From Nitrospinota bacterium (GTDB lineage Bacteria; Nitrospinota_A; UBA7883; JADGGD01): a DNA stretch of 47,186 nucleotides. This document shows positions 9,964-32,097 of the stretch, piece by piece. Positions within the stretch are counted from its first letter, which is position 1. Every line of letters starts with the position of its first letter. The position numbers and the translations under genes were made by a program. The DNA lies in NCBI GenBank assembly GCA_015229165.1, contig JADGCD010000002.1:1-47186 (forward strand). The letters run 5' to 3'. The notes below the pieces were generated by a model. The model worked only from the letters and a program-made list of their open reading frames with translations, was not told the DNA's origin and did not search any database.

Positions 9964-9972
9964 CTCGTTTCC

Positions 9973-15642: not shown

Positions 15643-15672
15643 TTTATATCGTTAAACCTTGTCCAAAGTCAA
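15643..15672 (-). promoter_or_regulatory. candidate sigma70 promoter for nuoF-nuoG
   Basis: On the minus strand: TTGACT (15667-15672), an 18-nt spacer, then TATAAA (15643-15648). It sits between the obg stop and the nuoF start. Confidence 0.4.
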
Positions 15673-15699
15673 GCGTTCCATTCCCCGGTATTCCCCTGT

Positions 15700-16914
<1,215 letters not shown>

Positions 16915-16955
16915 TCAGACATCATACGACACCCCACAAAGGGACGCCTTCACAC

Positions 16956-16984
16956 AAAAAGCCCGTCCCCCGAAGGGAACGGGC
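16956..16984 (-). terminator. Rho-independent terminator after rpmA
   Basis: Stem GCCCGTCCC / GGGAACGGGC (16961-16984, one bulge), followed on the minus strand by UUUUU (A16956-A16960). It lies about 20 nt downstream of the rpmA stop. Confidence 0.7.
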
Positions 16985-17004
16985 TCGACGGGTCGCGCGG
17001 TGGT

Positions 17005-17268
17005 TTAATTCGACGCCGGGGCGATGTTGATGAACCGGCGGTTCTTGGGGCCCCCTTCGGTAAAGGAGACGGTCCCTTCGATTTTGGCGAAGAGGGTGTG
17101 GTCGTTCCCCATGCCGACGTTGACGCCGGGGAAGAACCGGGTGCCCCGCTGGCGGACGAGAATGCTCCCGGCCGAAACGATTTCACCGGCGAATTTCTTG
17201 ACCCCCAGACGGCGCCCGACGGAATCGCGGCCGTTGGTGGTGCTGCCCTGTCCTTTTTTATGAGCCAT
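17005..17268 (-). CDS. rpmA: 50S ribosomal protein L27
   Basis: An 87-aa protein, [26 protein letters not shown].... Confidence 0.97.
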
Positions 17269-17332
17269 TCTTGCCTCCCGGGTAGCTCCTTGCCGAAGGA
17301 GCGTTATTTCGTATTAAGTTCTTGATCGGCGA

Positions 17333-17641
17333 TCAGTTGATCGCGGTGATCTTCAGTTTGGTCAGCGACTGGCGGTGACCGATCTTCTTCCGGCTGTTTT
17401 TGCGGCGCCGGTGGTACATGATGACGATCTTGGGGCCTTTCCCCTGGGCAAGCACGGTGGCGCGGACGGTTTTCCCTTCCAGCGCGGGGGCGCCCACCTC
17501 GACCTTCTCGCCGTCGCCGGCCATAAGGACCGGGCCAAGCTCCACTTCGGCGCCGACTTCGGCGTCGAGTTTCTCGACGGTAATGATGTCCCCTTCGGAG
17601 ACCTTGTACTGCTTTCCGCCGGTTTTCACCACTGCGAACAT
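17333..17641 (-). CDS. rplU: 50S ribosomal protein L21
   Basis: A 102-aa protein, MFAVVKTGGKQYKVSEGDII... (ATG at 17639-17641). The track ORF 17333..18061 is over-extended. Confidence 0.96.
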   Translation of the reverse strand: MFAVVKTGGKQYKVSEGDIITVEKLDAEVGAEVELGPVLMAGDGEKVEVGAPALEGKTVRATVLAQGKGPKIVIMYHRRRKNSRKKIGHRQSLTKLKITAIN

Positions 17642-17709
17642 GTCCGTATCGCTCCTTGTCGCCCTTCTCCGGGACCAACGGAGAACGGGCCTGATTTCGA
17701 AAAAGAGAA

Positions 17710-17738
17710 ATTGTGCCAAATCGGCAGGCTTTACGCAA
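17710..17738 (-). promoter_or_regulatory. candidate sigma70 promoter for rplU-rpmA
   Basis: On the minus strand: TTGCGT (17733-17738), a 17-nt spacer, then TGg-CACAAT (extended -10, 17710-17718). Confidence 0.3.
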
Positions 17739-17800
17739 CCTCTTTTTATCGGCGCGGCGCCGGGGCCGGTTGGGGCATGATGGGAGGGAAGGGGGCGACC

Positions 17801-18130
17801 ATGCGAAAACTGTTGATGATGGGGCTGGCGCTGACGCTCAGGTTGGCGCCTTTGGCGATAGCAGGGGGGGTAGGGGCTTTTTACTACTGGTACGCCTCCG
17901 GGGGGACGACGGCGACCCTTAGGCTGGCGGAATATTGCGACGCCCAACGCCCCGGCACGCCGGTGGAGACAGCCCGAAAGCGGGCCGAAGACAAAGGCTT
18001 CGAGATCATGCTGGAGCGGGAGGATAGCTTCTCCGCAATGGCCAGTGTGCTGATGTACCACCGGACTTTCTGCGAAGTCTCGTACACCGACGGCGAAGTG
18101 ACGGCGACGAGAGTCTTTACGATGGATTGA
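17801..18130 (+). CDS. hypothetical small membrane-anchored/secreted protein
   Basis: A 109-aa protein starting MRKLLMMGLALTLRLAPLAIAGGVGAFYYWY (N-terminal hydrophobic segment). A G-rich SD, GGGAGGGAAGGGGG, lies just upstream. GC3 is high. I recognised no family. Confidence 0.5.
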   Translation: MRKLLMMGLALTLRLAPLAIAGGVGAFYYWYASGGTTATLRLAEYCDAQRPGTPVETARKRAEDKGFEIMLEREDSFSAMASVLMYHRTFCEVSYTDGEVTATRVFTMD

Positions 18131-18136
18131 GAGCGC

Positions 18137-18721
18137 CTACTCTCCTTCTATCCCCCGGATCGCGGCGTCGGCCCGTTTGCCGAGGAGGCCGGTGAGCAAC
18201 TCCCGGACGCCGGGGGAAACCTTTTTCCGGTCGCGCCGCTTTTTCGTCAGACAGACCGGATTGGAAGCGAGGTCGAACCCGACATGAATCTTTCCGTCGG
18301 GGTCTTTGTCGCCGATGGTCAAGGGCCAGATGCGGCAGGGGAGGGGCTTTTCCTTCATCGGGTCGAGCCCGATCTCCAGACAGGCGGCATGCAGCGCGCA
18401 CCGTTTCTCCCCGGCGGCGACGAAGGTGAAGACGCAGTCCCCCGCATCGTTCTTGTCGATGACGAACCGGCGGGGATCGTCGTCGAACTCGTCGAAGACG
18501 TTGACCGGCGTGCGCCCCTGCATAAGCGTCGGGGCGTACCGGGCCGAGGCGGGCATGAGGCCGGTCATCCGCTCCATCTCGGTCCGGGAGATGTCCACTT
18601 CGAACCGGGCGCAGCAATATTCGTCGCGCTCTTCACACTTCTCCGGCTCGCAGGCGTACTCCCACGCCACCATCTGGGCCGCGTCGATCCGGTACTGCCC
18701 GACGATCACTTCTCTTTTCAT
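18137..18721 (-). CDS. Cys-rich conserved hypothetical protein (possibly DUF3109-like)
   Basis: A 194-aa protein with high GC3 and scattered Cys residues (CEPEKCEERDEYCC, CVF, CALHAACL, CRIW, C). The family assignment is from memory only. Confidence 0.6.
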   Translation of the reverse strand: MKREVIVGQYRIDAAQMVAWEYACEPEKCEERDEYCCARFEVDISRTEMERMTGLMPASARYAPTLMQGRTPVNVFDEFDDDPRRFVIDKNDAGDCVFTFVAAGEKRCALHAACLEIGLDPMKEKPLPCRIWPLTIGDKDPDGKIHVGFDLASNPVCLTKKRRDRKKVSPGVRELLTGLLGKRADAAIRGIEGE

Positions 18722-18742
18722 GGCGACGATTGTCGCACGGCT

Positions 18743-19708
18743 TCAGTCGGTGGTGTAGGTCGAGGCGCCATCCAGCGACGTGGGGCGGCTGCTCCCATAC
18801 GCGAGCGTCATCGATCCGCTGACGATGTCGTATAGGCCCCGTGCGGTTCCACCGGAGCCGACGAAGTCGATGGACGATACCCCTCCCGGTCGCGGCGTGA
18901 GGCTGACGCTCCCCTCCTCCACGCTGGCGCCGGTGTCGTCCTGAAACCGGTAGGTGACGTTCCCCGATCCACTGTCGCAGGTGAAGAGAATCTTCGCAGC
19001 GCCGCCGCCACCGCTTTTCGTCCATGTGCGGGCGAGGACCGGATTGGCGACGTTCCCCCGGTCGTTGCCGGGGTAGGGTTCGCACAGCTCCTGCCGGTAG
19101 GCGGCGCCTTGCCATATGCTGTCGAACTGGCTCTTGGCGGTGGGGGTGAGCCGGTCGTAGGGAGAGACGGCGAAGGGGTTGGAGAGGCCGTCATTCACGG
19201 CGAAATCGTCGATCTGATAGTGGGTCATGGCGAAGGTGACCGGGGCGGAGCCGATCCAGATGGTCTGGGCGCCGGCGATTCCCAACGGCTGACCGGCTAC
19301 CACTGCGGCGCCGACGACGATCCCGTCGAACAACGTCCCGACGTTGGTATAGTCGGTCCTGAGACTTCCGCCGTTGTGGCTGATGGCGATGGTGTGGCGT
19401 CCCGGCGTTTCGGTATCGTCGAAGATCGACTGAATCGTCCCATCGGCCCCGGCCCGGACGGAGGCGCCGATGGCGAACTCGACGTCGATACCCGGATGAC
19501 CGTCGGCGGCGTGTCCCCCGCCATGAACGCCGAAGGGCCATATGCCGTAGGCGACCTGCGCGGAATCACCTTCGGCGATGGGGAGGACGAAGGTGAGCGA
19601 CGCCGTCGGTGTGACGCCCCCGCCGGTGTCAGTGGCGCCGCCCCCTCCTCCGCCTCCACAGGAGGCGAGAAGGAGCAGCGATGCAGTGAGAAGGAGGTTT
19701 CGTTTCAT
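18743..19708 (-). CDS. lipoprotein with an M23/LytM-like domain
   Basis: A 321-aa protein. Signal peptide plus lipobox MKRNLLLTASLLLLASC, followed by a poly-Gly linker. It has the HxxxD-type motif GHPGIDVEF. The second HxH motif is not evident (THYQIDD). Confidence 0.65.
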   Translation of the reverse strand: MKRNLLLTASLLLLASCGGGGGGGATDTGGGVTPTASLTFVLPIAEGDSAQVAYGIWPFGVHGGGHAADGHPGIDVEFAIGASVRAGADGTIQSIFDDTETPGRHTIAISHNGGSLRTDYTNVGTLFDGIVVGAAVVAGQPLGIAGAQTIWIGSAPVTFAMTHYQIDDFAVNDGLSNPFAVSPYDRLTPTAKSQFDSIWQGAAYRQELCEPYPGNDRGNVANPVLARTWTKSGGGGAAKILFTCDSGSGNVTYRFQDDTGASVEEGSVSLTPRPGGVSSIDFVGSGGTARGLYDIVSGSMTLAYGSSRPTSLDGASTYTTD

Positions 19709-19772
19709 CGGCGGCTCCCCGGGGTTTTCTCCATTATGCTACCGTGGGGATCATTCCACCGTATCGTGACGG

Positions 19773-21134
19773 CTACATACCTTCCCCCCGATACCGCTCG
19801 AACCGGGGGCGCAAATCGGCGGGCGCCACGAACACCCATGAGTTCCCCGGCTTCACCTTGTCCAGAAGCGCCAGTTCGTCGGAAAGCTCCAGCAGGTCGT
19901 TGCGCGCGGAGTTCCGGGAGATGTCGTACTCCCGTGCGTGCGCGGCGAAGCTGTACTCATACCCCGGATGCCGCAGCGCATGGCGGAGCAATTCCTTCTG
20001 CCGGAAATTGAGTCGTCGTCCCAGCTCCTGCCCCAAGATCGTTTCGGCGTCTCGGGTCTGCTCGGCCTTGTATTGCACCTCATCAATTAGCCGCTCAATT
20101 TCGAGGCGGATCACCTCCAGTTGGTCGATGATGAAGTAGGTCAGGTCGTTCCCGTCGGTCTCGCTGTGGAGATAGGAGGCGCTATATTCTTTCTTGCGCT
20201 TCTTGATGGCGCCCGAAATCGACAGAAACTCGATCAGGCTGTAGCCGCTCCTCAGCGCTTGCCAGTAGAAAAGGGCGCGGGCGGTACGACCGTTCCCGTC
20301 AACGAATGGGTGGTCATAGCCGATCATGAAGTGGAGGATAATCGCCTTGACCAGCGGATGGATAAAAACGATCCCGTCCTGTTCGTTGGCGAATCGGCAG
20401 AGCCGCTCCAACCGTACGGGGAGTTCTGCGGCGGGTGGAGGGGAGTGAACAGGGGTCAAGTCTCCCTCTCGCCAATAGACCGCCACTTGCTCCTCGGGGC
20501 GGCGAAACCGCCCCGCCTGATCCGGTATCGCCAAGGTTCCCTCGGTGAGCGTTTTGTGGAGGGTAAAGACGATCTCCGGGGTAAGGGGTTCGTCGCCACG
20601 GCTTCGAATGTACTCCATGGCGTCATAGTTGTTCAGGATCATCCGCTCGCTTTTGTCGACCGGTCTCCTTTTTTGGCGGATCATCTCCTTGGCGACGACG
20701 CGCGTCGTGGTGGCCCCTTCGATCTGGCTGGAGTAGATCGCTTCATCGATCAATGCTTGAAGACGAATGGAGCGGCCCTGTGCCGGGTTTCGCAGGTCGA
20801 CCAGATCGACGGCGACGCTTTCCCCCGCATGCCCGAGCCATTCCAGCTCCCTTTGCACCATGTCCGGAAGGGTGAAGACAAATCCTGTCCCCCTTTTGTC
20901 GACAAAGGGGAGCTTCTTTTGCGTCATGGAGCGGGAGAGCTTGGTGGCGAACCACCACTCCTCGACCGACAACCCCTCTGGCGGGGTGCGTCTTTTCAGT
21001 TCCGCCCAATGGAGATAGCGCCCCTTGTAGTCCACGGGAGAGAAATGAGGGACCAGTTTTGCAAAGGCCCCAGATTCTTTGCCGATACGATCGGAAAGCA
21101 ACGCAAAGTCAGGGGGAGATTCGGGAATTCTCAT
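19773..21134 (-). CDS. Fic/DOC family protein (class II, internal inhibitory helix) with a C-terminal winged-helix-like region
   Basis: A 453-aa protein with the Fic motif HPFVDGNGRTARA. The upstream SSQIEG matches the [ST]xxxE[GN] auto-inhibitory motif. GC content looks lower than in the flanking core genes. Confidence 0.9.
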   Translation of the reverse strand: MRIPESPPDFALLSDRIGKESGAFAKLVPHFSPVDYKGRYLHWAELKRRTPPEGLSVEEWWFATKLSRSMTQKKLPFVDKRGTGFVFTLPDMVQRELEWLGHAGESVAVDLVDLRNPAQGRSIRLQALIDEAIYSSQIEGATTTRVVAKEMIRQKRRPVDKSERMILNNYDAMEYIRSRGDEPLTPEIVFTLHKTLTEGTLAIPDQAGRFRRPEEQVAVYWREGDLTPVHSPPPAAELPVRLERLCRFANEQDGIVFIHPLVKAIILHFMIGYDHPFVDGNGRTARALFYWQALRSGYSLIEFLSISGAIKKRKKEYSASYLHSETDGNDLTYFIIDQLEVIRLEIERLIDEVQYKAEQTRDAETILGQELGRRLNFRQKELLRHALRHPGYEYSFAAHAREYDISRNSARNDLLELSDELALLDKVKPGNSWVFVAPADLRPRFERYRGEGM

Positions 21135-21154
21135 AGAATCGACCTATATTTTAT

Positions 21155-21272
21155 ATGAAATATCAACGAAGTGTCAGCAACTGTCAACTTTGACACTTAG
21201 CCCCCCTCAGCCCAGCGAAAAATGGCATATCATGAAATATAAACAAAGTGTTAGCAACTGTCAACTTTGACA
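21155..21272. repeat. two copies of a 41-bp direct repeat (38/41 identical), 77-bp period
   Basis: Copy 1 (21155-21195): ATGAAATATCAACGAAGTGTCAGCAACTGTCAACTTTGACA. Copy 2 (21232-21272): ATGAAATATAAACAAAGTGTTAGCAACTGTCAACTTTGACA. Both lie in the AT-rich spacer between the fic start and the comM stop. Confidence 0.9.
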
Positions 21273-21328
21273 GCTGCCTCATTCTCCACCACCTGTCACT
21301 TATTGTCAACAACTGTCAATTATGACAG
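21181..21328. promoter_or_regulatory. array of three 16-bp palindromes, CTGTCA-N4-TGACAG (= CTGT-N8-ACAG); putative operators upstream of fic
   Basis: O1 at 21181-21196 is CTGTCAACTTTGACAC. O2 at 21258-21273 is CTGTCAACTTTGACAG. O3 at 21313-21328 is CTGTCAATTATGACAG. Extra TGTCA half-sites occur at about 21172, 21293 and 21303. O1 overlaps a minus-strand TTGACA that could serve as the fic -35. Confidence 0.5.
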
Positions 21329-21353
21329 TTACTGACTAGCAACATACATTAAA

Positions 21354-22889
21354 TCAAAGGTTATCCCTGTCAAGGCTCCGGTACTGCACCGCTTCGGAGA
21401 GGTGCATCGCCTCGATCTTCTCTTTCCCGGCCAAGTCGGCGATCGTCCGGGCGACTTTCAGAATCTTCTCGTGCGCCCGGGCGGAGAGCCCCAGCCGGTC
21501 AACGGCGGTCTTGAGCAACTGCCGCGACGGTTCGTCGAGGACGCAATGTTTCCTGGTCTCCTTGTTCCCCATCCGGGCGTTGGCGTAGATGCCGCTTCCG
21601 GCGAACCGGGCAAGCTGGATGTCCCGCGCCCTGTTCACACGGGCCCGAATGGCGGCGGACGACTCGCCGGGAGGACTCTCCATCATCTGCTGGTACTTCA
21701 CCGCCGGGGCCTCCACATGCAGGTCGATCCGGTCGAGGAGCGGACCGGATATGCGGCTCCGGTATTTGCGGATCATGTGGCCGGTGCAGCCGCATTCCTT
21801 GTCGGGGTCGGTGTAGTAGCCGCAGGGGCAGGGGTTCATGGCGGCCAGCAACATGAACCGACAGGGATAGGTGACGCTCATGGCGGCCCGGCTGATGGTG
21901 ACGGTCCCCTCCTCCAGCGGCTGGCGCATCACTTCCAACACGTTCCGACGAAACTCCGGCAGCTCGTCGAGAAACAGCACCCCGTTATGCGCCAACGATA
22001 CTTCGCCGGGGATGGGGGTGGTCCCCCCGCCGATGAGCCCGGCGTCGGAGATGGTGTGATGCGGCGACCGGAACGGGCGGCGGACCACCAGCGCCCGGCG
22101 CCCTTCGAGCTTTCCGGAGACGCTGTGTATCCGCGTCGTCTCCACCGCTTCGTCGTAGGTGATGTCGGGGAGTATGGTGGGGAGCCGCTTGGCCATCATC
22201 GACTTGCCGGAGCCGGGAGGGCCGATGAGGAGCGCGTTATGCCCGCCGGCGGCGGCTACCTCCAAGGCCCGTTTGACGTGCCCCTGTCCTTTCACGTCGG
22301 CGAAATCGTCGTCGTACCCGGCGCCGATCCCCTGCGCGAAAAGGGAGGGGGCGTGGATGGTGGTGGGGGTGAGGGCCAGTTTTCCCGACAAGTACTCCAC
22401 CACCTGCGGCAGCGAATCGACGCCGATGACGGTGACCCCCTCGGCCACCGCCGCCTCTTCGGCGTTCTCCGCCGGGACGACGATCCGGGCCACCCCCCGG
22501 TCCCGCGCCAGCAGGGCCAGTGAAATGATCCCCCGCACCGGCTTGACCCGGCCGTCGAGAGCCAGCTCGCCGAAGAACATGCTGTCGGCGAGGTCGGCGT
22601 CGAGTATCCCGTCGGCCTGCAGGATCCCCAGGGCGATGGGGAGGTCGAATGCGGCGCCCTCCTTTCGCACGTCGGCGGGGGCGAGGTTGACGGTGATCCG
22701 TTTGACCGGACATTCGAACCCGGCGTTGGCGATGGCGGCCAGAATCCGCTCCTGCGACTCCCGGATGGCGGTGTCGGGGAGGCCGACGGTGGCGTAGGCG
22801 AAGACTCCCGGCGCCAGATTGACCTCCACCTCCACCGGAAAGGCGGAGACGCCGAAGACGGAGGCGCTCTGGGCGCGGGCGACGGGCAT
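21354..22889 (-). CDS. comM: YifB/ComM family Mg-chelatase-like AAA+ ATPase
   Basis: A 511-aa protein from [14 protein letters not shown] (ATG at 22887-22889). It has an N-terminal Lon-protease-like domain, Walker [10 protein letters not shown], and a C-terminal Mg-chelatase subunit ChlI-like region. Confidence 0.92.
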
Positions 22890-22958
22890 CGGGAGGTCCT
22901 TAAAGTATAAAATGGCTTCGCCATCGTAGAGCGGCCCCGGGGAGGGTGTCAACCATCC

Positions 22959-22986
22959 TTGCTCTTCGTAAGCGGTATAGTATAAT
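22959..22986 (+). promoter_or_regulatory. candidate sigma70 promoter of the DUF262-HEPN operon
   Basis: TTGCTC (22959-22964), a 16-nt spacer, then a perfect TATAAT (22981-22986). GAGGAAG lies 8 nt upstream of the ATG at 23039. Confidence 0.5.
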
Positions 22987-23038
22987 AATTACCGAGCGGC
23001 ACGTCTGACATTTTCACTATTTAGAGGAAGTGAACATC

Positions 23039-24154
23039 ATGCTTTCCGACGAGATTACAATAACACAGCGTCAAGTTCGAACAGATGCATATCAAATGTC
23101 GATTGGCGAAATCGTCAGCATGTACGAAAAGTCTGAAATTATTGTTGACCCGGAGTTTCAGCGCCTATTTCGATGGAAGATTAGCCAGAAAACAAAGCTA
23201 ATTGAATCCATACTTCTTGGGATACCGTTGCCATCCATTTTTGTCTTTGAAAAAGACGATGGCACTTGGGAATTGATTGATGGCCTTCAAAGAATCTCCA
23301 CAATTCTAGAATTCATGGGCATTTTGAAATCACCTGAAGGGAGTTTGCTACCTCCATCCATTCTTGAATCCACTAAATACTTACCCTCACTTCATAATGC
23401 CGTTTGGGAAAGGTCAAAGGAGATTGTCGATACATTATTGAAGGAGCAGATGCCATTCGACAAGTCGCAGCAACTTGCTATCAAACGTAGCCGAATTGGA
23501 GTTGAGATTCTTAAACGGCCTAGCGATGATCAAGCAAAATACGATCTGTTTCAAAGACTAAATGCTGGTGGAACTTTGGCAAATGCGCAAGAACTGCGCA
23601 ACTGCATTATTCTAATGATAAATAGGAAGTATTTCCATGCAATAAAGAAAGTCGCTGATAGCCCTCATTTCCGGAGAGTAATTTCCGTGACAGAGGAGCA
23701 GGTTGAAAAGCAAAGGCATTTGGAAATGGCGGTGCGATTCCTAGTTCATGTCAACATTGATTATGATGGGAAGCTGGATGTCGAAGAGTATATTGATGAG
23801 GGTATCATTGAGTTATCTAGACTTGGGAAAGGCAAATCTGCCGCCGACTTAATCGATAAAACATTTAGGATACTCGATGATATTGCAGGGGAAAATGCTC
23901 TGAAGCGCTTCCAAAGAGGCAGCTACACTGGAAAGGTAGGCCTTGTTGGCTTAGAGGGTATTGCTGTTGGCATTGGAAAGAATATTGATGCAATTTCCGA
24001 TCTTGCCCCTATTAAAGCTAAAAAGTTTATTGAAGATAGAATCAAAAAATTCTGGTCTGCTCCTGAGTGCGAAAGCTTCACCTCACCTGGGCTACGTGGC
24101 ACAACTCGTATCCAAAGAACAGTGCCATTTGGCCATAAATGGTTTCGACCATGA
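23039..24154 (+). CDS. DUF262 (ParB/Srx-fold, GmrS-like) domain protein, stand-alone with no DUF1524/HNH half
   Basis: A 371-aa protein (ATG at 23039; the track starts 9 nt earlier at a GTG). Signatures: PEFQRLFRW, DGLQR (23279-23293), FQRLNAGGTLANAQELRN. GC is about 40%. Confidence 0.85.
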   Translation: MLSDEITITQRQVRTDAYQMSIGEIVSMYEKSEIIVDPEFQRLFRWKISQKTKLIESILLGIPLPSIFVFEKDDGTWELIDGLQRISTILEFMGILKSPEGSLLPPSILESTKYLPSLHNAVWERSKEIVDTLLKEQMPFDKSQQLAIKRSRIGVEILKRPSDDQAKYDLFQRLNAGGTLANAQELRNCIILMINRKYFHAIKKVADSPHFRRVISVTEEQVEKQRHLEMAVRFLVHVNIDYDGKLDVEEYIDEGIIELSRLGKGKSAADLIDKTFRILDDIAGENALKRFQRGSYTGKVGLVGLEGIAVGIGKNIDAISDLAPIKAKKFIEDRIKKFWSAPECESFTSPGLRGTTRIQRTVPFGHKWFRP

Positions 24155-24798
24155 GCAAACCATATACTGGAGAAGATTTTTCTGCTCAAATCATTGATGA
24201 CAGAAATTGGCGAATAAAGGAGATTTCAGACTTAAAATCGGCGATCAAGAGTGGAGACTCGAGATTGCAGAAGGTCCTGTTACGCTCTTTAGTCACTATC
24301 TGCTATGCGCACTGGGAGGGATATATTAGATTTGCAGCCAGAAAGTATATGGAGCATGTATCACTTCGAAGAATGCCTTACAGTGCGCTGGAACCACAAT
24401 TTCTTAAGAATTATTTCCTGCCCCGATTAGCTGCGCTTTCCACTTCCAGGACAAGCATCAAAGAGCGGTGTGAACTTATTACCGAAATTCTTCAAGCATC
24501 AGAGCGGCGCTTCAGTTATGTCAACAATGATCTCATTAACACAAAGGCTAACTTAAACTTTGAGGTTTTTGCTGATATTTGTCTTGTCTGTGGACTTCCA
24601 ATATCCGATTTTGGTGGCCAGTCCACCTTTATTGACGTCCTCCTATTGAAGCGTCGGAACTCCATTGCCCATGGAGAGGAAACTTTCGTTCATATTGACG
24701 ACTTGGACGAATTGGCAGATAGTACCATTTCGCTGATGCGCGCCTTCGGTGACTCTCTTGAAAACAGGGTGGTTTTGCAGACATTCAAGGTAAATTAG
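24151..24798 (+). CDS. HEPN-like putative RNase (Rx4H motif RNSIAH)
   Basis: A 215-aa protein starting MSKPYTGEDF. Its ATG overlaps the DUF262 stop as ATGA (24151-24154). The R-N-S-I-A-H motif is at 24655-24672. The sequence looks helical and low in GC. From memory it resembles the MAE_28990/MAE_18760-type HEPN family. Confidence 0.7.
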   Translation: MSKPYTGEDFSAQIIDDRNWRIKEISDLKSAIKSGDSRLQKVLLRSLVTICYAHWEGYIRFAARKYMEHVSLRRMPYSALEPQFLKNYFLPRLAALSTSRTSIKERCELITEILQASERRFSYVNNDLINTKANLNFEVFADICLVCGLPISDFGGQSTFIDVLLLKRRNSIAHGEETFVHIDDLDELADSTISLMRAFGDSLENRVVLQTFKVN

Positions 24799-24869
24799 AT
24801 TAGTATTCTTTCTTTGCTCTGCCTGCCTTTCCCTTGCCCCCCGTCGTCCGCCGGGGGTATCCTCGAACC

Positions 24870-25292
24870 ATGGAGATCGATCCCCCCCCCTCGCTGATGG
24901 CCAAGGTCCGGCGGCTGGCCCGCCTGCGGACGTTGCTCGCCCAGGCGCGCCGTCTCGACCGGCGGGAGAAATACCGCCTCTACATGAGCATGATGGGCGC
25001 CGACCCGGCGTGGATCGAAGGAGAGGACTGGGCCTTCATCCTCCACAAGCTGGTGGCAGGCTCGCACAACGTGGCCGCGTTCGAGAAAGAGGCGACCCGG
25101 TTGGAGCAGGAGCTTCGGGGGGAGGCGGCGCTGGCCGGTGACGATCCGGCCCGGTGGCACAAGCGGGCGCTGGAAACGGAGCCGACGTTTCTCGACCCGG
25201 TCCTCGACCTGGTCCACCGGAAGATCGCCGCCTTCTACGCCTACGCTGGCGATCCGGCCCGGGGGATGTCGGCGCAGCGGCCCGAGCCGTGA
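24870..25292 (+). CDS. hypothetical protein, translationally coupled to thiD
   Basis: A 140-aa protein from MEIDPPPSLMAKV. GC3 is very high. Its stop overlaps the thiD GTG start as GTGA at 25289-25292. I recognised no domain. Confidence 0.55.
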   Translation: MEIDPPPSLMAKVRRLARLRTLLAQARRLDRREKYRLYMSMMGADPAWIEGEDWAFILHKLVAGSHNVAAFEKEATRLEQELRGEAALAGDDPARWHKRALETEPTFLDPVLDLVHRKIAAFYAYAGDPARGMSAQRPEP

Positions 25293-26086
25293 CCGCCCCG
25301 GCGCGCCCGGTGGCGCTCACCATCGCCGGGTCGGACCCTTCCGGCGGGGCGGGGATACAAGGCGACCTGAAAACCTTCGCCGCCTGCGGGGTCTACGGGG
25401 CCGCCGCCATCGCCGCGCTGACGGTCCAGAACACGCAAGGGGTCACCGACGCCGTCGGGGTCGAACCGTCGTTCGTCGCGGCGCAGGTGACGGCGGTCCT
25501 CGACGACCTGCCCGTCGGCGCCATCAAGACCGGCATGCTCTTCGACGCCGGGATTATCGAGGCGGTGGCGACGGTATTGGCGGGACGCGGGGAGATCCCG
25601 CTGGTCGTGGACCCGGTGATGGTTTCGACCAGCGGTCATCGTCTGTTGAAGCCCGATGCGGTGGAGGCGATCAGGACAAGGCTCCTGCCACTGGCGACCA
25701 TCGTCACCCCCAACGGGCCGGAAGCCTTCGACCTGACCGGCGTCGTCGTGACCGACGAGGAGTCGATGCGAAAGGCGGCGGAGAAGATCGCGGCGATGGG
25801 GCCGCAAGGGGTGGTGATCAAGGGGGGGCACCACCGTCAAGGGTCGAGCGCGATCGATCTGCTGTTGTTCGATGGGGTCTTCAGCCGGTTCGAACGTCCC
25901 TGGATCGAGACGCCGTACACCCACGGCTCCGGCTGCGCCTTCGCTTCCGCCATCACGGCGGGACTGGCCAAGGGGCTCACCGTTCCCGACGCCGTAGCGG
26001 AAGCCGAAGCGTTCATCGGCAAGGCCATCGCTTCGGCCTACCGCATCGGCCTCGGGATCAACAGTCCGGTGAATCACTTTTCCTAA
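25289..26086 (+). CDS. thiD: hydroxymethylpyrimidine/phosphomethylpyrimidine kinase
   Basis: A 265-aa protein from a GTG start, reading VTAPARPVALTIAGSDPSGGAGIQGDLKTF...; it also has GSGCAFASAI. The track ORF is over-extended at its 5' end. Confidence 0.92.
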   Translation: MTAPARPVALTIAGSDPSGGAGIQGDLKTFAACGVYGAAAIAALTVQNTQGVTDAVGVEPSFVAAQVTAVLDDLPVGAIKTGMLFDAGIIEAVATVLAGRGEIPLVVDPVMVSTSGHRLLKPDAVEAIRTRLLPLATIVTPNGPEAFDLTGVVVTDEESMRKAAEKIAAMGPQGVVIKGGHHRQGSSAIDLLLFDGVFSRFERPWIETPYTHGSGCAFASAITAGLAKGLTVPDAVAEAEAFIGKAIASAYRIGLGINSPVNHFS

Positions 26087-26218
26087 GAGTGTTGTTGGGG
26101 AAAGGGTGAGACGGCGGTTGTCGCTGCGACTGTATTGTGGGGAGGCTGCATTCCCCCTTCATGTGTCCAGCGGTCGCCCACGAGAGGGGCGGCGCCACTC
26201 GGCCACCAAGCGTTCAAT

Positions 26219-26251
26219 AAAAAACCCGGCAGGAGGGAGAGTCCTGCCGGG
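26219..26251 (-). terminator. Rho-independent terminator downstream of flgE
   Basis: A perfect 10-bp stem (26225-26234 CCCGGCAGGA / 26242-26251 TCCTGCCGGG) with a 7-nt loop. On the minus strand it is followed by UUUUUU (A26219-A26224). It lies about 140 nt after the flgE stop. Confidence 0.8.
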
Positions 26252-26389
26252 TCGGGAGTGGGTCCGGTGGGAGCCGGAACCCAAAGCGGAAAACAAAGGC
26301 GGAGAAGGTAATCGTATCAATGAGGCCGTTTTCATAAAGAGAGGGGAGGTCGTCATCCATGACGGTTTCCCGCTCTCACCATGGCGTTC

Positions 26390-27655
26390 TTACCGGACCA
26401 GGTTCACCACCTCTTGCAGCATCTGGTCCACCGTCGTCACGATCCGGCTGTTGGCCTGGTAGGCCCGCTGGTTCTGGATCATCGTGACGAACTGCTCCGA
26501 CAGGTCGACGTTGCTCATTTCCAGCGCCGAGCCGTAGATCGATCCGAATCCCCCCGCCTTGGCCACCCCGAAGATCGGCTGCCCCGACTGGGCCGTTTCG
26601 CCGAAGAGGGTGTCGCCCGACCGGGTCAGCCCCCAGGGGGAGAGGAAGTCCGCCAGCTGCACCTGATAGAGCTGCTGCGTCTGCCCGTTGCTGAAGAGCC
26701 CCGAGATGATCCCCTCGCCGTCCACCGAGAGCCCCCGGAGGACGCCGGTGGAGTAGCCGTCCTGCACCACCGAGTTGGTCACCGAGTCGGAGGCGTAGCT
26801 GGTCAATTCGCCAAGCGATGCCCCCGTGACCCCGTTGACGAGGGTCCAGGTGGTGTTCAGCGGCTGCGCCCCCGAGGGGAACCCGCTGATGGTCAGCGTC
26901 TGGTTGGCCACGGCGCCCCCGTCGATCTGGGTCAGCTGGCCGGTGGCCGAGAAGGTGGCCGTGCCGTTGACCCCGGTGCCGGCGAGCACGGTCCCGGCGG
27001 GACCGGTGGCGGCGAAGGTCCACTCCAGCGGCGTCACCGATTTCGTGAAGGTGTAGGTGATGGTCACCGGTTCGCCCACGGCGTTGTAGACGTTCATCGA
27101 GGTGGCGAAGGTGGCGCCCGCCGAGGCGGCGGCGTCGAGGTTGATGCCGAACTTGAAGGTCGAAGTCGCCTTCGGCACCGACTGGACGCCGGAGATGTCG
27201 ATGTCGCCGGCCGACGAGGCCCGGGTGATGGCGCCGGAGGTGTTGGTGGAGAGCTGATACCCCTGCACGTAGTAGCCGTTGGCGTTGGAGAGCTTCCCGT
27301 TCTGGTCCAGGATGAACTGCCCGGCGCGGGTGTAATAGGTGCCGTTGGTGAAGCCGGGGTTCCTGACCACGAAGAACCCGGCGCCCTGGATGGCCATGTC
27401 GGTGGCGTTGCCGGTGGTCTCGAAGGACCCCTGCGAGAAGGAGGCCGACACGTCGCTGATGGCGGCGCCCCGTCCGAACTGCAGGTTGGTGGCGCCGTTG
27501 GCCACCTGGTTGGCCAGGATGTCGGCGAAGACGGCCCGGTTGCCCCGGAAACCGACGGTGTTGACGTTGGCGATGTTGTCGCCGGTGACGTTCATGGCGT
27601 TGCCGTAGGTCTGAAGACCCGACACGCCGGTGTACATCGCACTCTGCAGGCTCAT
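26390..27655 (-). CDS. flgE: flagellar hook protein FlgE
   Basis: A 421-aa protein with N-terminal MSLQSAMYTGVSGLQTYGNAMNVTGDNIANVNTVGF and C-terminal ...QNQRAYQANSRIVTTVDQMLQEVVNL. Confidence 0.95.
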   Translation of the reverse strand: MSLQSAMYTGVSGLQTYGNAMNVTGDNIANVNTVGFRGNRAVFADILANQVANGATNLQFGRGAAISDVSASFSQGSFETTGNATDMAIQGAGFFVVRNPGFTNGTYYTRAGQFILDQNGKLSNANGYYVQGYQLSTNTSGAITRASSAGDIDISGVQSVPKATSTFKFGINLDAAASAGATFATSMNVYNAVGEPVTITYTFTKSVTPLEWTFAATGPAGTVLAGTGVNGTATFSATGQLTQIDGGAVANQTLTISGFPSGAQPLNTTWTLVNGVTGASLGELTSYASDSVTNSVVQDGYSTGVLRGLSVDGEGIISGLFSNGQTQQLYQVQLADFLSPWGLTRSGDTLFGETAQSGQPIFGVAKAGGFGSIYGSALEMSNVDLSEQFVTMIQNQRAYQANSRIVTTVDQMLQEVVNLVR

Positions 27656-27725
27656 GATCGATTCTCCTTGTTCCGCTTTTTTACGGCCGCTCCGATGAGC
27701 GCCCGGTATCCCCTTTGTTCCGCTT

Positions 27726-28439
27726 TCAGGCCGCCGCTTTCGGCTCGTGGACTTCCACGATCTCCGAGAGCATGTATTTCTGGTTCCCCACGGTGACGTA
27801 GGCCACGCCGCCGTCGTAACTGACCCCGGTGGCGATCCCCCGGGTGTAGGTGGAGACGTCCATCAGGTTCCCGGCGCTGTCGTTGGCCAGCACGGTGTAG
27901 GTGTACAGACCGTCGGGCAGCGTCGAACCGTCGTCGGCGGTCCCGTCCCAGGCGACGGTGTTCTTCCCTGCGGGAAGCGATCCCTTGTCGATGGTGCGGA
28001 CCACGTTCCCGGCGGCGTCTTCGACGATGATCTTGGCGCCGCTGGCGGTGTCGGGGATTTCGAAGGTCACGTCGGCCCCCTGTCCCCCCTTGACGTAGAC
28101 GTTGTGCCCCTGGGCGGTCACTTCCTTGCCGATCAGGTTGATGGCCTGGGAGGTGTTGGCCGAGTTGACGGCGGAGGTCATCAGCCCCATGGCGTCGTTG
28201 ATCCCCATGAGCTGTTCGAGGCTGGAGAACTGGGCCATCTGCGAAGTGAACTGGCTGTTGTCCACCGGGTTGGTGGGGTCCTGGTTCTTGAGCTGGGCCA
28301 CCAGCAGGGTCAGGAACTGGTCCTTGCCCATGGCGCCCACTTTGGCGGCGACCGACTGGCTGCTGGCGGCGGCCGTGGAGGTGGCCCCGGCGCCGGTGGC
28401 GGCGCTGTCGGTGGCGGACATGGTGTTTTGCGCGATCAT
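27726..28439 (-). CDS. flgD: flagellar hook capping/assembly protein FlgD
   Basis: A 237-aa protein from MIAQNTMSATD (ATG at 28437-28439, with a GGGAGAGAG SD). It contains KDQFLTLLVAQLKNQDPTNPVDNSQFTSQMAQFSSLEQ. Confidence 0.93.
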   Translation of the reverse strand: MIAQNTMSATDSAATGAGATSTAAASSQSVAAKVGAMGKDQFLTLLVAQLKNQDPTNPVDNSQFTSQMAQFSSLEQLMGINDAMGLMTSAVNSANTSQAINLIGKEVTAQGHNVYVKGGQGADVTFEIPDTASGAKIIVEDAAGNVVRTIDKGSLPAGKNTVAWDGTADDGSTLPDGLYTYTVLANDSAGNLMDVSTYTRGIATGVSYDGGVAYVTVGNQKYMLSEIVEVHEPKAAA

Positions 28440-28452
28440 GATGCTCTCTCCC

Positions 28453-30042
28453 TTACGCCACGATCGACAGAAGCCCTTCGTGCCGCGGATCGCGGCCCGA
28501 GGGGGCGTTGGCTTCATCGGTTTCAATGGTCGACGCGGCGTCGGCGCCCCGGTTCCGCCCGGCGCCGTGGGCGCCGTTGCGTCCGTCGGCCTGGGCCTGT
28601 CCGAAGGCCATTCCCTGCCGCTCGTCGGCGGTGACGACGGTCAGTTCGTCGACCTTCATCCCGGCGTTGGAAAGCTGCTGGCGCAGCTGGTCGAGGTTGC
28701 GTTCGATGGCCGCTTTCACTTCGGGGCTCTCGGCCACCATGATGGCTTTCACGGAGTCGTCTTTCACCATCACCCGCATGTCGATCTTCCCGAGATGGGG
28801 GGGGTCGAGCCGCATGGTCATCTGGGAGGCGCCGTTGGGGCGGAAGCCGATCCGGGCTTTCTCGACCACCTGCGCCATCACCAGCCGCTCGAAATCGCGC
28901 CGGGGGGCGGCGGCCCGCTCGCTCTTCTCCAGCGCTTCGGCGGAGGCGGCCTCCCCTTTGGCGGCGGTGTTGGCGACACCGGTGGTGTCGGTCGATCCGG
29001 CGCGGGGAGCGGCGGCGCTCCCCTTGTCGGCGGAGGCGGCGGCGGCGGCCGGAGCGGTCACAAGCTTCCCGGCGGCCTCCTGCTCGGCGCCCTTGGCGGC
29101 CTGTTCGGCGGCGGGCGTCTGGGGAGCGGCGGCCTGCGTCTTGGCGGCGGCTTTCTCTTTCGACCCGTCAAGGGCGGCTTCCTTCATGGCGGCCCGCGAC
29201 TCGGTGTCGGCCAGCGAGGAGACCATCCCTTCCGGGCGGGCCTCTTTTTTCGATTCGGGGTTCCCCTGACCCTGCTGATCCTTGGGCGTGTCGGTCGACT
29301 GCTCCTGCCGGGCTTCCTGCGGGCGAACCTCGGCGGTCGGCTGTTTGGCGGAGGCGTTCTCCTGCCGGACTTCCTGCGGGCGGGCTTCGGCGACGGGGGC
29401 CTTGACCGTTTCGGTCTCGACCTCGTCCTGCGCCAGCTCGGCGTTCCCGCCGACGTTGTCGATGGCGACCGCATCATCCTTACCGGTGAGAACCAAAAGG
29501 CTCTGGGCGGTCTGGGCCAGATCCCCCTGGGCCAGTCCGTTTTTCAGCTCTTCGGAGACGGCCACATCCAGATTCATCGACTGGGCGAACTGGCCGATCT
29601 CCTCGCCGGTGAATCCGAGCTGGGTCAGGAAGTCGTTCATGCTCATCTGCCCGGCCTGCTCCATGAGAGCGGCGTAGGCGTCGGGGTTCTCGGCCTTGAG
29701 CTGGTCGAGACGGGCCATGATCTTGGCGGCCATGGCGTCGGCGGAAAGGGCCGGTTTCTCTTCGGCGTCCCGATCGTCCTGGGAGGCGCTTTCGGCTTTC
29801 TGCGACTTGTCGCTCTTGACGGCCCGCTGGTCGTCGCCCCGGTCGTCGTCGGTCTCTTTGGCTTCAGGGCGGGGGGAGGAGGTTTCCCGGGGCGTAACGT
29901 TCTGGTCGTTCTTCTGGACGGAGGCGAAGATTGCGGCGAAAGACTGATCGGCGACGGCGCCTTGGGCGGCCCCACCGGCGAAAGAGCCGACAACGCCACG
30001 GGCGGCGCCAGCCAGCAGGTCGGTCATCAGCGATTCGATCAT
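28453..30042 (-). CDS. fliK: flagellar hook-length control protein FliK
   Basis: A 529-aa protein from MIESLMTDLL (ATG at 30040-30042, with a GGAGAA SD). It has a low-complexity Ala/Glu/Gln/Pro-rich centre and a C-terminal Flg_hook domain (MRLDPPHLGKIDMRVMV...LRQQLSNAGMKV). Confidence 0.85.
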   Translation of the reverse strand: MIESLMTDLLAGAARGVVGSFAGGAAQGAVADQSFAAIFASVQKNDQNVTPRETSSPRPEAKETDDDRGDDQRAVKSDKSQKAESASQDDRDAEEKPALSADAMAAKIMARLDQLKAENPDAYAALMEQAGQMSMNDFLTQLGFTGEEIGQFAQSMNLDVAVSEELKNGLAQGDLAQTAQSLLVLTGKDDAVAIDNVGGNAELAQDEVETETVKAPVAEARPQEVRQENASAKQPTAEVRPQEARQEQSTDTPKDQQGQGNPESKKEARPEGMVSSLADTESRAAMKEAALDGSKEKAAAKTQAAAPQTPAAEQAAKGAEQEAAGKLVTAPAAAAASADKGSAAAPRAGSTDTTGVANTAAKGEAASAEALEKSERAAAPRRDFERLVMAQVVEKARIGFRPNGASQMTMRLDPPHLGKIDMRVMVKDDSVKAIMVAESPEVKAAIERNLDQLRQQLSNAGMKVDELTVVTADERQGMAFGQAQADGRNGAHGAGRNRGADAASTIETDEANAPSGRDPRHEGLLSIVA

Positions 30043-30082
30043 GGTATTCTCCGCTTCCGTGGTATCTGTTCGTTTGGACAAC

Positions 30083-30097
30083 CGTATCCATAACAAG
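30083..30097 (-). promoter_or_regulatory. candidate sigma54 (-24/-12) promoter for fliK-flgD-flgE
   Basis: On the minus strand: TGGCAC-AGCCC-TTGT. The spacing is canonical, but the -12 element reads GT rather than GC. It lies about 40 nt upstream of the fliK ATG. Confidence 0.4.
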
Positions 30098-30317
30098 GGC
30101 TGTGCCAAAATAGATGAGCGCATGCAATGTAAATAAAATCAACTATATACATTTGCCATGTCGCCTAAAGTTTTCCCGCCAACCTGCCGACGGGGCAAGA
30201 ATGAACCGCTTCTTTCCATTCCGCTTTGGGAGACAAGGCATTTTTTTCCCACACGGCGCTTTCTCGCAATCCGCTATGGGGAAATGGGGGCGCCCCCCTT
30301 CCTAACCGGAAGAATAC

Positions 30318-30347
30318 TTGACAATATCGCTAAGGTTTCCTTACTAT
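30318..30347 (+). promoter_or_regulatory. candidate sigma70 promoter of the sulfur-carrier operon
   Basis: TTGACA (30318-30323), an 18-nt spacer, then TACTAT (30342-30347). This leaves a leader of about 165 nt before the thrC-like GTG. Confidence 0.35.
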
Positions 30348-30521
30348 CGATTCAAACAACGGTGGTTTTCGGGACAATACGAAAAGCGCCGGGGTTTGTC
30401 CGGCTGGCGCTTTCATAAATACGACCGGATTAGTCTGAATTGGCGACGATGTTCTTTATAGAGAGGGCTCTTTGAACATGACCGACGTATCGACCATCGG
30501 GCCGACGCCCCGGAGGAAGCC

Positions 30522-31763
30522 GTGAGCTTCGTTCTCGGCCTCAAATGCCGCGAGTGCGGCCGCGAATATCAGCAGGAGCCGATCCACGTCTGCGAATTCT
30601 GCTTCGGCCCCCTGGAGGTGCGCTACGACTACGCCGCCATCGGCCGCTCCATCAGCCGGGAGGCGATCACCAAACGGCCCGCGTCGATGTGGCGCTACCG
30701 GGAGCTGATCCCCATCGACCGCGACCCGGTGGTGGGGCTGGACAACGGCTTCACGCCGCTGGTCCACGCGAAGAACCTGGGGCGCCTTCTCGGCATGCCG
30801 AACCTCTACATAAAGAACGACGCGGTCTGCCATCCGACCCTCTCTTTTAAAGACCGGGTGGTGGCGGCGGCGGTGAACAAGGCGATGGAGTTCGGCTACG
30901 ACACGGTGGCCTGCGCCTCGACGGGGAACCTGGCCAACTCGGTGGCGGCCCACGCGGCGGCGGCGGGGATGAAGGCTTACATCTTCATCCCGTCGGATCT
31001 CGAAGCGGGGAAGGTGTTGGGCTCGTCGATCTACGAACCGAACATCCTCGGCATTGACGGTAGCTACGACGACGTGAACCGCTTCTGCTCGGAGGTGGCG
31101 GCGGTCTACAAGTGGGCGTTCGTGAACATCAACATCCGCCCCTTCTACGGCGACGGGTCGAAGACCTACGGCTACGAGATCGCCGAGCAACTCGGCTGGA
31201 GGGCGCCCGACGCCTACATCTCGCCGGTGGCCGGGTCGAGCCTGATTACGAAGATCTACAAGGCGTTCAAGGAATTCGAACAGCTCGGGCTTCTCGAAGA
31301 CGAGGTAAAGACCAAAGTCTACGCGGCGCAGGCCACCGGATGCTCGCCGGTGACGACGGCCATCAAGGCGGGGAAGACGGAGTTCACCCCGGTGAAACCG
31401 AACACCATCGCCAAGTCGATCGCCATCGGGAACCCGGCGGACGGCTACTACGGCATCAAGGTGGTCAACAGCACCGGCGGCTGGGGCGAAGACGTGACCG
31501 ACAACGAGGTGATCGAAGGAATGCGGCTCCTGGCCCGGACAGAGGGGATCTTCACCGAAACGGCAGGGGGCGTGACGGTGGCGGTCACCAAGAAGCTGCT
31601 CGAACAGGGGAAGCTCGACCCGGAAGGGGTCACGGTGATCGCCATCACCGGGCAGGGGCTGAAAACCCGCGAGGCGGTGGCGGATCTGCTGACGCCGCCG
31701 ACGATCATCGAACCGAAACTGGGCGCTTTCGAGGCGACCATGAAAAAAAACCGGTGGCAGTAA
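30522..31763 (+). CDS. threonine synthase-family PLP enzyme with an N-terminal Zn-ribbon
   Basis: A 413-aa protein with a GTG start preceded by GGAGGAAG. It has CRECG...CEFCFG and the PLP-lysine motif HPTLSFKDR. Whether it is a true ThrC or a sulfur-carrier-dependent homocysteine-forming homologue cannot be decided from the sequence alone. Confidence 0.88.
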   Translation: MSFVLGLKCRECGREYQQEPIHVCEFCFGPLEVRYDYAAIGRSISREAITKRPASMWRYRELIPIDRDPVVGLDNGFTPLVHAKNLGRLLGMPNLYIKNDAVCHPTLSFKDRVVAAAVNKAMEFGYDTVACASTGNLANSVAAHAAAAGMKAYIFIPSDLEAGKVLGSSIYEPNILGIDGSYDDVNRFCSEVAAVYKWAFVNINIRPFYGDGSKTYGYEIAEQLGWRAPDAYISPVAGSSLITKIYKAFKEFEQLGLLEDEVKTKVYAAQATGCSPVTTAIKAGKTEFTPVKPNTIAKSIAIGNPADGYYGIKVVNSTGGWGEDVTDNEVIEGMRLLARTEGIFTETAGGVTVAVTKKLLEQGKLDPEGVTVIAITGQGLKTREAVADLLTPPTIIEPKLGAFEATMKKNRWQ

Positions 31764-31791
31764 AGCCGACCACGAAGGAGATGTACAAGAC

Positions 31792-32097
31792 ATGGCGACC
31801 GTGAAGGTGCGGATTCCCACCCCGTTGCAGAAGTTGACCAAAGGGGTCGGTGAGGTGCAGGGGAACGGCGGGACGATCAAGGAGGTGTTCGGCGATCTGG
31901 AGGCCCAGTTTCCCGGCATCCGCTCGCGGCTGTACGACGAGGAGGGGAACCTTCGACGCTTCATCAACGTGTATGTGAACGAAGAGGATATCCGCTTCCT
32001 TGAAGGGGAAGCGACCGGCCTGAAGGACGGGGACGACATATCGGTGATCCCGGCCATCGCCGGCGGCGCCCCTACGCGGGGCGGCGAGCTCCGCTGA
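31792..32097 (+). CDS. MoaD/ThiS-family sulfur-carrier protein, CysO-like, with a 9-residue tail after the Gly-Gly
   Basis: A 101-aa protein. ...RFINVYVNEEDIRFLEGEATGLKDGDDISVIPAIAGG-APTRGGELR. The core closely recalls M. tuberculosis CysO (RFVNIYVNDEDVRF...ILPAVAGG). Confidence 0.85.
   Translation: MATVKVRIPTPLQKLTKGVGEVQGNGGTIKEVFGDLEAQFPGIRSRLYDEEGNLRRFINVYVNEEDIRFLEGEATGLKDGDDISVIPAIAGGAPTRGGELR

Follow-up and report, generated by a model that had tools for sequence, protein, structure and literature searches.

The islet examined here, two genes of low guanine-plus-cytosine (GC) content in a 47,186-nucleotide (nt) stretch of a Nitrospinota bacterium (assembly GCA_015229165.1, contig JADGCD010000002.1, positions 1 to 47,186; referred to below as the window), is a precise insertion of 1,879 base pairs (bp) of foreign DNA that is absent from a close relative, and is probably a self-contained, horizontally acquired two-gene anti-phage cassette of the PD-T4-2 type. 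Gene 1 encodes a DUF262 (ParB-like) protein and gene 2 a HEPN protein, the combination found in PD-T4-2, which was obtained from Escherichia coli ECOR65 by functional selection with phage T4 and is described as 'DUF262, HEPN' (Vassallo et al. 2022, Nat Microbiol; PMC9519451). PD-T4-2 cloned with its native promoter in E. coli K-12 protects, and its deletion in ECOR65 restores T4 plaquing (PMC9519451). The islet pair is very probably of the same kind as PD-T4-2, profile and alignment evidence placing it as a diverged branch or subfamily of that type, and an anti-phage function of the pair is likely. An initial annotation of the window, made from the sequence alone, had proposed a defence or abortive-infection role, which by analogy with the architecture of PD-T4-2 is the best reading. 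It had also called the pair uncharacterised and known to no experiment, which does not hold for a DUF262 plus HEPN system, since PD-T4-2 has been validated against T4. The features on which this reading draws are as follows (positions are those of the window; lengths of proteins are in amino acids, aa).

22954-24832, no strand: islet, horizontally acquired; 1,879 bp, 42.3% GC, with an empty site in a relative
23039-24154, plus strand: gene 1, 371 aa; DUF262/ParB-like domain and helical C-terminal half
23150-23164, plus strand: PEFQR of gene 1 (aa 38-42); P38, F40, Q41 and R42 invariant in 30 homologues
23279-23293, plus strand: DGLQR of gene 1 (aa 81-85), the DGxQR motif; all five residues invariant in 30 homologues
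23549-23572, plus strand: FQRLNAGG of gene 1 (aa 171-178); invariant in 30 homologues
24151-24154, plus strand: ATGA start/stop overlap of gene 1 and gene 2 (predicted translational coupling); same 4-nt overlap in related loci
24151-24798, plus strand: gene 2, 215 aa; stand-alone, full-length HEPN protein of the RiboL-PSP and MAE_28990 families
24304-24321, plus strand: YAHWEG of gene 2 (aa 52-57), a family hallmark; H54, E56 and G57 invariant and Y52, A53 and W55 at least 90% conserved in 112 representatives
24655-24672, plus strand: R-N-S-I-A-H of gene 2 (aa 169-174), the Rx4H catalytic motif of HEPN proteins; no variation among 30 close homologues

The foreign origin of the islet was evident from its composition and from the corresponding site in the relative. 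Thus, the islet lies between comM and a hypothetical-thiD gene pair, where the GC profile was 0.40-0.44 over 22950-24750 as opposed to 0.65-0.74 on either side (63.9% for the flanks versus 42.3% for the islet), and the counts given in the initial annotation (24/60 for 23221-23280 and 41/60 for 25321-25380) were exact. The inserted DNA consists of gene 1 and gene 2 with 85 bp of noncoding sequence on the 5' side and 34 bp on the 3' side, and carries no recombinase. A search with the ComM protein led to assembly GCA_942491805.1, in which a 168-kb contig (CALOCG010000024.1) encodes a ComM that is 89% identical; the next matches in this search were 67-70% identical and came from metagenome-assembled genomes of Nitrospinota, which makes a host of this lineage probable, and a ComM scan of GTDB genomes, with a best match of 56% identity, revealed no empty site by that route. 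The contig of the relative is collinear with window positions 15559-32722, i.e., with synteny on both sides of the islet, and places comM 132 bp away from the same hypothetical gene and thiD, with no DUF262 or HEPN gene between comM and thiD. Homology ends at window position 22953 (..GTGTCAAC) and restarts at 24833 (CTTGCC..), and the empty site of the relative has 4 nt (TGCT) between ..GTGTCAAC and CTTGCC... Because the close relative has this empty site, the islet can be identified as a precise insertion. The foreign origin proposed earlier was thus shown directly at the comM-thiD junction of the relative, and the boundaries proposed with it, 22953-24830, agree with the mapped ones to 1-2 nt.

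Comparison of related loci indicated that the two genes belong together. For this purpose 86 loci, comprising genomes, IMG/VR contigs and 80 metagenome contigs, were gathered by means of the HEPN protein alone. Upstream sequence of 150 nt or more was available for 82 loci, in each of which a DUF262 gene was present directly 5' of the HEPN gene; of the 49 with 1,113 nt or more, 48 had this gene in full length. The junction between the genes was ATGA in 70 of 84 loci, GTGA in 11 and TTGA in 1, and in the remaining 2 an ATGA occurred just 3' of the computed start, with the register off. Similarity of DNA between copies of the cassette was limited to the two coding sequences. Homologues of each protein number in the hundreds, are approximately 60-74% identical and match in length (371 and 215 aa); their sources are alpha-, beta- and gamma-proteobacteria and many metagenomes, both proteins often occur on the same contigs, and the RefSeq names of close homologues are 'MAE_28990/MAE_18760 family HEPN-like nuclease' beside 'DUF262 domain-containing protein'. 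Judged by these loci, the DUF262 and HEPN genes form a strictly co-conserved operon with predicted translational coupling. The gene coordinates and the 4-nt overlap had been given correctly in the initial annotation, and the conservation as an operon on which it had made its proposal depend was borne out.

An association of this kind had been noted by Anantharaman et al. (2013, Biol Direct), who by comparative analysis only described RiboL-PSP-HEPN and MAE_28990 HEPN domains in operons with ParB; this is the computational report to which the initial annotation had referred, and the islet pair corresponds exactly to the gene-neighbourhood class noted there. MAE_28990 was also linked in that study to DNA methylase genes, whereas the islet has no methylase.

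The start of gene 1 at ATG 23039 is backed by alignment to 29 homologues. The encoded protein has a DUF262/ParB-like NTPase (nucleoside triphosphatase) domain at aa 24-191 (nt 23108-23611), which matched PF03235 (GmrSD_N/DUF262) with an E value of 4.6e-25. No other Pfam family matched gene 1 at E<=1; there was no match beyond aa 191, DUF1524/HNH included, as had been proposed earlier, and the C-terminal half, from about aa 192 to 371, is predicted to be helical. Among PADLOC models the best match was NsnA (2.4e-52; aa 10-290 on profile positions 41-299 of 385), PD-T4-2_A was matched at 7.3e-32 (aa 21-331 on positions 39-326 of 363) and matches to REase_II, SspE and HEC-05/06 were weak, and among the PHROG families gene 1 matched phrog_2598 (6.7e-68). 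The motifs PEFQRLFRW, DGLQR and FQRLNAGGT had been placed correctly in the initial annotation, at aa 38, 81 and 171, respectively. DGxQR is described in literature on BrxU, HEC-06 and NsnA as the nucleotide-phosphate-binding motif of ParB/DUF262 proteins. An AlphaFold2 model of gene 1 was poor, with a mean predicted local distance difference test (pLDDT) score of 55.9 and uninformative structural matches, because the alignment was shallow (approximately 70% identity).

Gene 2 matched PF18735 (HEPN_RiboL-PSP) over the whole profile (1.2e-40, 140 bits; aa 16-205 on positions 1-191 of 191) and PF18737 (MAE_28990) at 1.5e-31, so that the assignment of gene 2 to the HEPN proteins of MAE_28990/RiboL-PSP type stands and the Pfam matches of both proteins are far beyond chance. 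In the PHROG collection gene 2 matched phrog_22325 (1.3e-39). An AlphaFold2 model was an all-alpha bundle (mean pLDDT 83.5). The features of the HEPN superfamily, i.e., membership of its Pfam families, a conserved Rx4H motif and an all-helical predicted structure, were all found in gene 2. Conservation was assessed with 112 representatives that were 26-65% identical to gene 2. Among these, R169 was invariant and N170, A173, H174 and G175 were at least 90% conserved; N134 was also invariant, as opposed to H174, which was merely at least 90% conserved, and conservation of YAHWEG exceeded that of the RN..AH motif. When 1.84 billion cluster representatives were searched, gene 2 had 1,630 relatives with E<=1e-3, of which 902 had E<=1e-10, and the best 150 of the 1,630 were mostly 212-220 aa long. 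Gene 2 is a predicted RNase effector, and each protein has a conserved putative active site, DGxQR in the case of gene 1 and Rx4H in that of gene 2. The RNSIAH motif lies at aa 169, as previously annotated; the resemblance to Cas13 that was drawn from it is correct in that gene 2 has a HEPN motif but conveyed nothing beyond that. Since structure searches gave no relative, and neither protein had a sequence or profile relative among the solved structures in the PDB, the domain assignments rest on profile hidden Markov models, where the matches are strong.

The closest match to the islet pair among validated systems was evident from comparison with PD-T4-2. In both, two adjacent, co-oriented genes are present with the DUF262 gene 5' of the HEPN gene, and both are carried on mobile DNA. 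HHpred results for PD-T4-2 were PF03235 (99.7%) for the A protein and PF18735 (97.8%) and PF18737 (96.9%) for the B protein (PMC9519451), the system is entered under both DUF262 and PF18735 in a review table (PMC10952713), and it is catalogued in PADLOC as PD-T4-2_A and PD-T4-2_B. Like the A protein, which is a PF03235 protein without DUF1524, gene 1 has no such domain, and it matches PD-T4-2_A over nearly its full length; like the B protein, a small HEPN protein matching PF18735 and PF18737, gene 2 belongs to these families and has the conserved R169 and H174. A pair from E. coli TW11681 (NZ_CP035855.1) that matches both PADLOC models (A, 1.8e-55; B, 1.3e-8) was used in place of the ECOR65 proteins, as distant DNA searches of E. 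coli genomes recovered three other DUF262-HEPN pairs and not PD-T4-2 itself. Gene 1 was 33% identical to the A protein of the TW11681 pair (E 1e-22), and hhalign gave a probability of 99.3%.

Differences from PD-T4-2 were also noted. Gene 2, with its 215 aa, is longer than PD-T4-2B, for which approximately 165 aa can be estimated from the 1,540 bp of the cloned pair, and is a much more canonical member of PF18735, and gene 1 scores higher on the NsnA model of Menshen than on PD-T4-2_A. Several further observations weigh against the assignment to PD-T4-2 and a role in defence. The PD-T4-2_B model, which has 168 positions, does not match gene 2, and between gene 2 and the HEPN partners of the E. 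coli pairs only the RN..AHG catalytic helix was shared (BLASTP E values of 0.17 and 0.004; hhalign probabilities of 16-48%). Because pairwise similarity comes down to this helix, the shared Pfam family is the sole basis for homology of the effector to PD-T4-2B. A Foldseek search of PDB and BFVD with the model of gene 2 gave no significant match. Neighbours of related cassettes, of which 134 open reading frames (ORFs) from 27 loci were surveyed, were for the most part housekeeping genes; the few that are defence genes (RdrB, TIR-TM, AbiEii, PDC-S28 and methylases) partly agree with the defence-island context suggested in the initial annotation, and the enrichment was weak. Finally, PD-T4-2 itself is termed 'largely uncharacterized' as to mechanism, and no mechanistic paper on it was found in the literature searched.

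The failure of PD-T4-2_B to match gene 2 may be viewed in light of the narrowness of this model, which gave 1.3e-8, 4.4e-4 or no match at all with the HEPN partners of the E. coli pairs. Of the scans for defence systems proposed earlier, that with PADLOC models gave matches for gene 1 (PD-T4-2_A and NsnA) and none at E<=1 for gene 2. Since PD-T4-2_B misses gene 2, a scan in which both components are required would probably not call the islet locus. The PADLOC models at least thus appear to miss a large and widespread subfamily of PD-T4-2 type (the 1,630 cluster representatives at E<=1e-3).

Related pairs were found on mobile DNA of several kinds. In Cupriavidus the pair comes after a phage-type integrase, and in Mesorhizobium it lies within an element with AlpA, VapE, integrase and resolvase genes and has defence genes (an AAA_15/21 ATPase and Abi_alpha) as neighbours. 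Phage_integrase was the commonest neighbour family in the survey (7 ORFs), in which IS66, VapE, DUF3987 and a terminase were also noted. The GC content of the cassette, which ranged from 40% to 57%, was below that of the flanks in 28 of 36 other loci (median difference, -8 points), which points to donors of lower GC from which the cassette has been transferred recently and more than once. Distant pairs, approximately 30-38% identical, were present on plasmids of Bacillus, Corynebacterium, Psychrobacter, Leptospira, Enterobacter and E. coli, and their HEPN partners all passed the PF18735 threshold. Two of these plasmids, E. coli pLR-27_3 (3.9 kb) and Enterobacter cloacae pRHBSTW-00675_3 (5.7 kb, Col-type), are very small and carry the pair as near-sole cargo besides replication, mobilisation or toxin-antitoxin genes; in the record of the latter the DUF262 gene, at the end (4674-5645), is unannotated. 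The TW11681 pair (384-aa DUF262 protein and 211-aa HEPN protein) is in a P2-like prophage, between the CI-type repressor and the integrase (4916-6686 in the coordinates of the collected locus), and occurs at more than 99% identity in 10 of 5,426 complete E. coli genomes. A tblastn search of INPHARED phage records gave no match for gene 2, and relatives of the cassette proteins on the phage side consisted of PHROG families and three IMG/VR contigs. As judged from these contexts, the cassette moves between distant bacteria on integrase-bearing elements and its distant versions on plasmids and in prophages.

Other known systems resemble the islet pair in part. Menshen (NsnABC; Millman et al. 2022; Bell et al. 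2025, NAR) contributed the best PADLOC match of gene 1, and NsnA, a proposed DNA sensor that feeds an RNase effector, has the same layout as gene 1, with ParB-DUF262 followed by a helical C-terminal part ('ParBDB'). In contrast with Menshen, however, the insert lacks both NsnB (ABC ATPase and DUF3696) and NsnC (inactive PIN and BECR nuclease) and its effector is a HEPN protein; Menshen was rejected on finding that the HEPN gene is followed by the host hypothetical gene and thiD, which are also present at the empty site of the relative. The type IV restriction systems GmrSD, BrxU and SspE share with gene 1 an N-terminal DUF262 domain with the DGxQR NTPase motif but were rejected because gene 1 ends at 371 aa without the C-terminal DUF1524 (HNH-type) domain. 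As the effector is a separate HEPN protein and no DUF1524/HNH half is present, RNA would be the target, and not DNA as in these systems. PD-lambda-5, a validated defence system described as 'ParB/HEPN, methyltransferase' (Vassallo et al. 2022), also combines ParB-fold and HEPN modules, but these are fused in one protein and accompanied by a methyltransferase whereas those of the islet are encoded by separate genes with no methylase. Dazbog (DzbAB) was rejected in the absence of any Dzb model from the PADLOC matches of either protein, and HEPN-MNT was rejected because its defining features do not fit.

By analogy with these systems, a scheme leading from a sensor to an RNase can be put forward for the PD-T4-2-type pair, the details of which have about an even chance of being correct. 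Gene 1 would act as sensor or regulator, with its ParB-like domain and helical, DNA-binding half recognizing some feature of invading DNA and with binding or hydrolysis of a nucleoside triphosphate (NTP) serving as conformational switch. According to PMC10952713 and to the literature as quoted in PMC12065111, DUF262 has such a sensing role with an NTP switch in SspE, GmrSD and BrxU, and the same has been proposed for NsnA. Gene 2 would be the effector, a HEPN dimer with RNase activity that is either restrained or triggered by the gene 1 partner. Upon infection, gene 2 would cut transfer, ribosomal or messenger RNA, and translation and phage growth would stop, probably at the cost of the infected cell (abortive infection). 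Cleavage of RNA is the means by which other HEPN defence proteins abort infection.

An arrangement of two overlapping genes that end in a HEPN protein is also what would be expected of an addiction module resembling a toxin-antitoxin system, in which the HEPN protein is a toxin neutralised by the DUF262 protein, with stabilisation of mobile elements or small plasmids as its function and defence as a side effect. Type II toxin-antitoxin systems typically have this operon layout, HEPN toxins with protein antitoxins such as HEPN-MNT are well known, and the pair is near-sole cargo of the 3.9-kb E. coli and 5.7-kb Enterobacter Col-type plasmids. This explanation nevertheless appears unlikely. The upstream partner is no small antitoxin but an enzyme-like protein of 371 aa with invariant NTPase motifs, the PD-T4-2 architecture protects from phage in its native chromosomal context, and the islet pair stands alone in the chromosome, with no element left to stabilise. 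Assignment of the leading role to the DUF262 protein, as a nuclease that cuts or nicks foreign and possibly modified DNA with the HEPN protein as an accessory, RNA-binding or back-up suicide subunit, would make the pair a restriction-like system. The 2013 survey of HEPN proteins treated ParB-fold proteins as DNases and often tied HEPN to restriction-modification components, T4, with which PD-T4-2 was selected, has hypermodified DNA, PD-lambda-5 joins ParB/HEPN with a methyltransferase, and gene 1 has its weak PADLOC matches to REase_II, SspE and HEC-05/06. It is, however, the DUF1524/HNH half, which gene 1 is without, that carries out cleavage in GmrSD, BrxU and SspE; the inserted DNA encodes no methylase, and strict conservation of the HEPN catalytic motif argues for an active RNase, so that DNA targeting is quite improbable here.

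The islet could also be an inert or decaying passenger, i.e., a recent foreign insert that is unexpressed or nonfunctional in this host, in keeping with its GC content of 42% compared with 64% for the host, a weak -35 box, the lack of a terminator after gene 2 and the distance of the Nitrospinota-like host from the proteobacteria that have most close homologues. Against this, both reading frames are intact and of lengths typical of the family (371 and 215 aa), all of the invariant motif residues are kept, and gene 1 is preceded by a good ribosome-binding site and by a -10 box that is perfect and unique in the window, so that a dead insert is very improbable. A further reading departs from PD-T4-2 itself, i.e., that the subfamily with proteins of 371 and 215 aa is a mechanistically distinct sensor-effector pair and not simply PD-T4-2, because its HEPN protein shares the catalytic helix only, has YAHWEG as an extra motif and is paired with a gene 1 closer to NsnA. 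YAHWEG could then be part of a composite active site or a docking surface for the DUF262 NTPase. This reading is unlikely to be right but would, if true, define a two-component short-cut of Menshen, with a ParB-like DNA sensor driving an RNase without an ABC-ATPase transducer.

As a cassette of PD-T4-2 type, the islet pair reveals no new kind of system, since its architecture and both domain families are already those of a validated defence system. What it offers is a clean, minimal natural DUF262-HEPN cassette of two genes with exact boundaries and a matched empty site, in a poorly studied Nitrospinota-like host. Being highly conserved and very canonical, the subfamily would be a good model for control of a HEPN RNase by a ParB-like NTPase.

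Possible expression signals and a short repeat within the insert are listed below.

22959-22965 and 24814-24820, plus strand: TTGCTCT, 7-nt direct repeat read from the sequence
22959-22964, plus strand: TTGCTC, weak -35 box, 3/6 matches to consensus, with a 16-nt spacer to TATAAT
22981-22986, plus strand: TATAAT, candidate -10 box within the insert, 52 nt 5' of the start of gene 1
23023-23030, plus strand: Shine-Dalgarno-like AGAGGAAG, read directly; ends 8 nt before the ATG of gene 1

The TATAAT of the candidate -10 box was the sole occurrence of this hexamer on either strand of the window. The site was missing from the results of a consensus promoter scan because the -35 box has only 3/6 matches. 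Thus, the TATAAT reported in the initial annotation is real and unique, whereas the sigma70-like promoter ahead of gene 1 to which it was assigned is a plausible candidate only. The DNA 5' of gene 1 lacks conservation in other copies of the cassette. No Shine-Dalgarno-like sequence was seen ahead of gene 2, which together with the presence of one before gene 1 fits translational coupling, and no terminator was detected after gene 2.

The two copies of TTGCTCT bracket most of the insert, and TGCTCT occurs once in the empty site of the relative. The repeat may reflect a short target duplication or microhomology at insertion, though the evidence is weak, as a 7-mer can recur by chance. There were no long repeats flanking the islet, the noncoding ends of the islet had no match in the 86 related loci, so that no conserved ends or att-like repeats were seen, and no transfer RNA gene that could have served as integration target is present in the window. 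As a clean insert of 1.88 kb without recombinase or conserved ends, the cassette may, though this is unlikely, spread by an unrecognised route in which no recombinase stays within the insert.

Two observations concern comM itself. The longest comM ORF (21354-22952, minus strand) begins with TTG at 22952, whereas alignment of homologues favours ATG 22889 (511 aa). With the latter start, comM and gene 1 are approximately 150 bp apart, and promoters in both directions would lie in this spacer; for the minus strand, the consensus scan gave a promoter-like site with 10/12 matches at 22952-22923 (TTGACA, 18 nt, TACGAT). The other flank of comM (18712-21353) is also variable, with GC falling to 0.45-0.62, and contains on the minus strand an ORF of 321 aa (18743-19708) and a Fic gene (19773-21134; PADLOC SoFic, 6.7e-41). 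The counterpart in the relative (positions 9537-14225 of its stretch) has a Patatin gene (442 aa), a 323-aa ORF, a Fic gene and a 247-aa ORF, and between the two regions the Fic genes alone match, with 68% DNA identity, so there is turnover of defence-like genes on both sides of comM.

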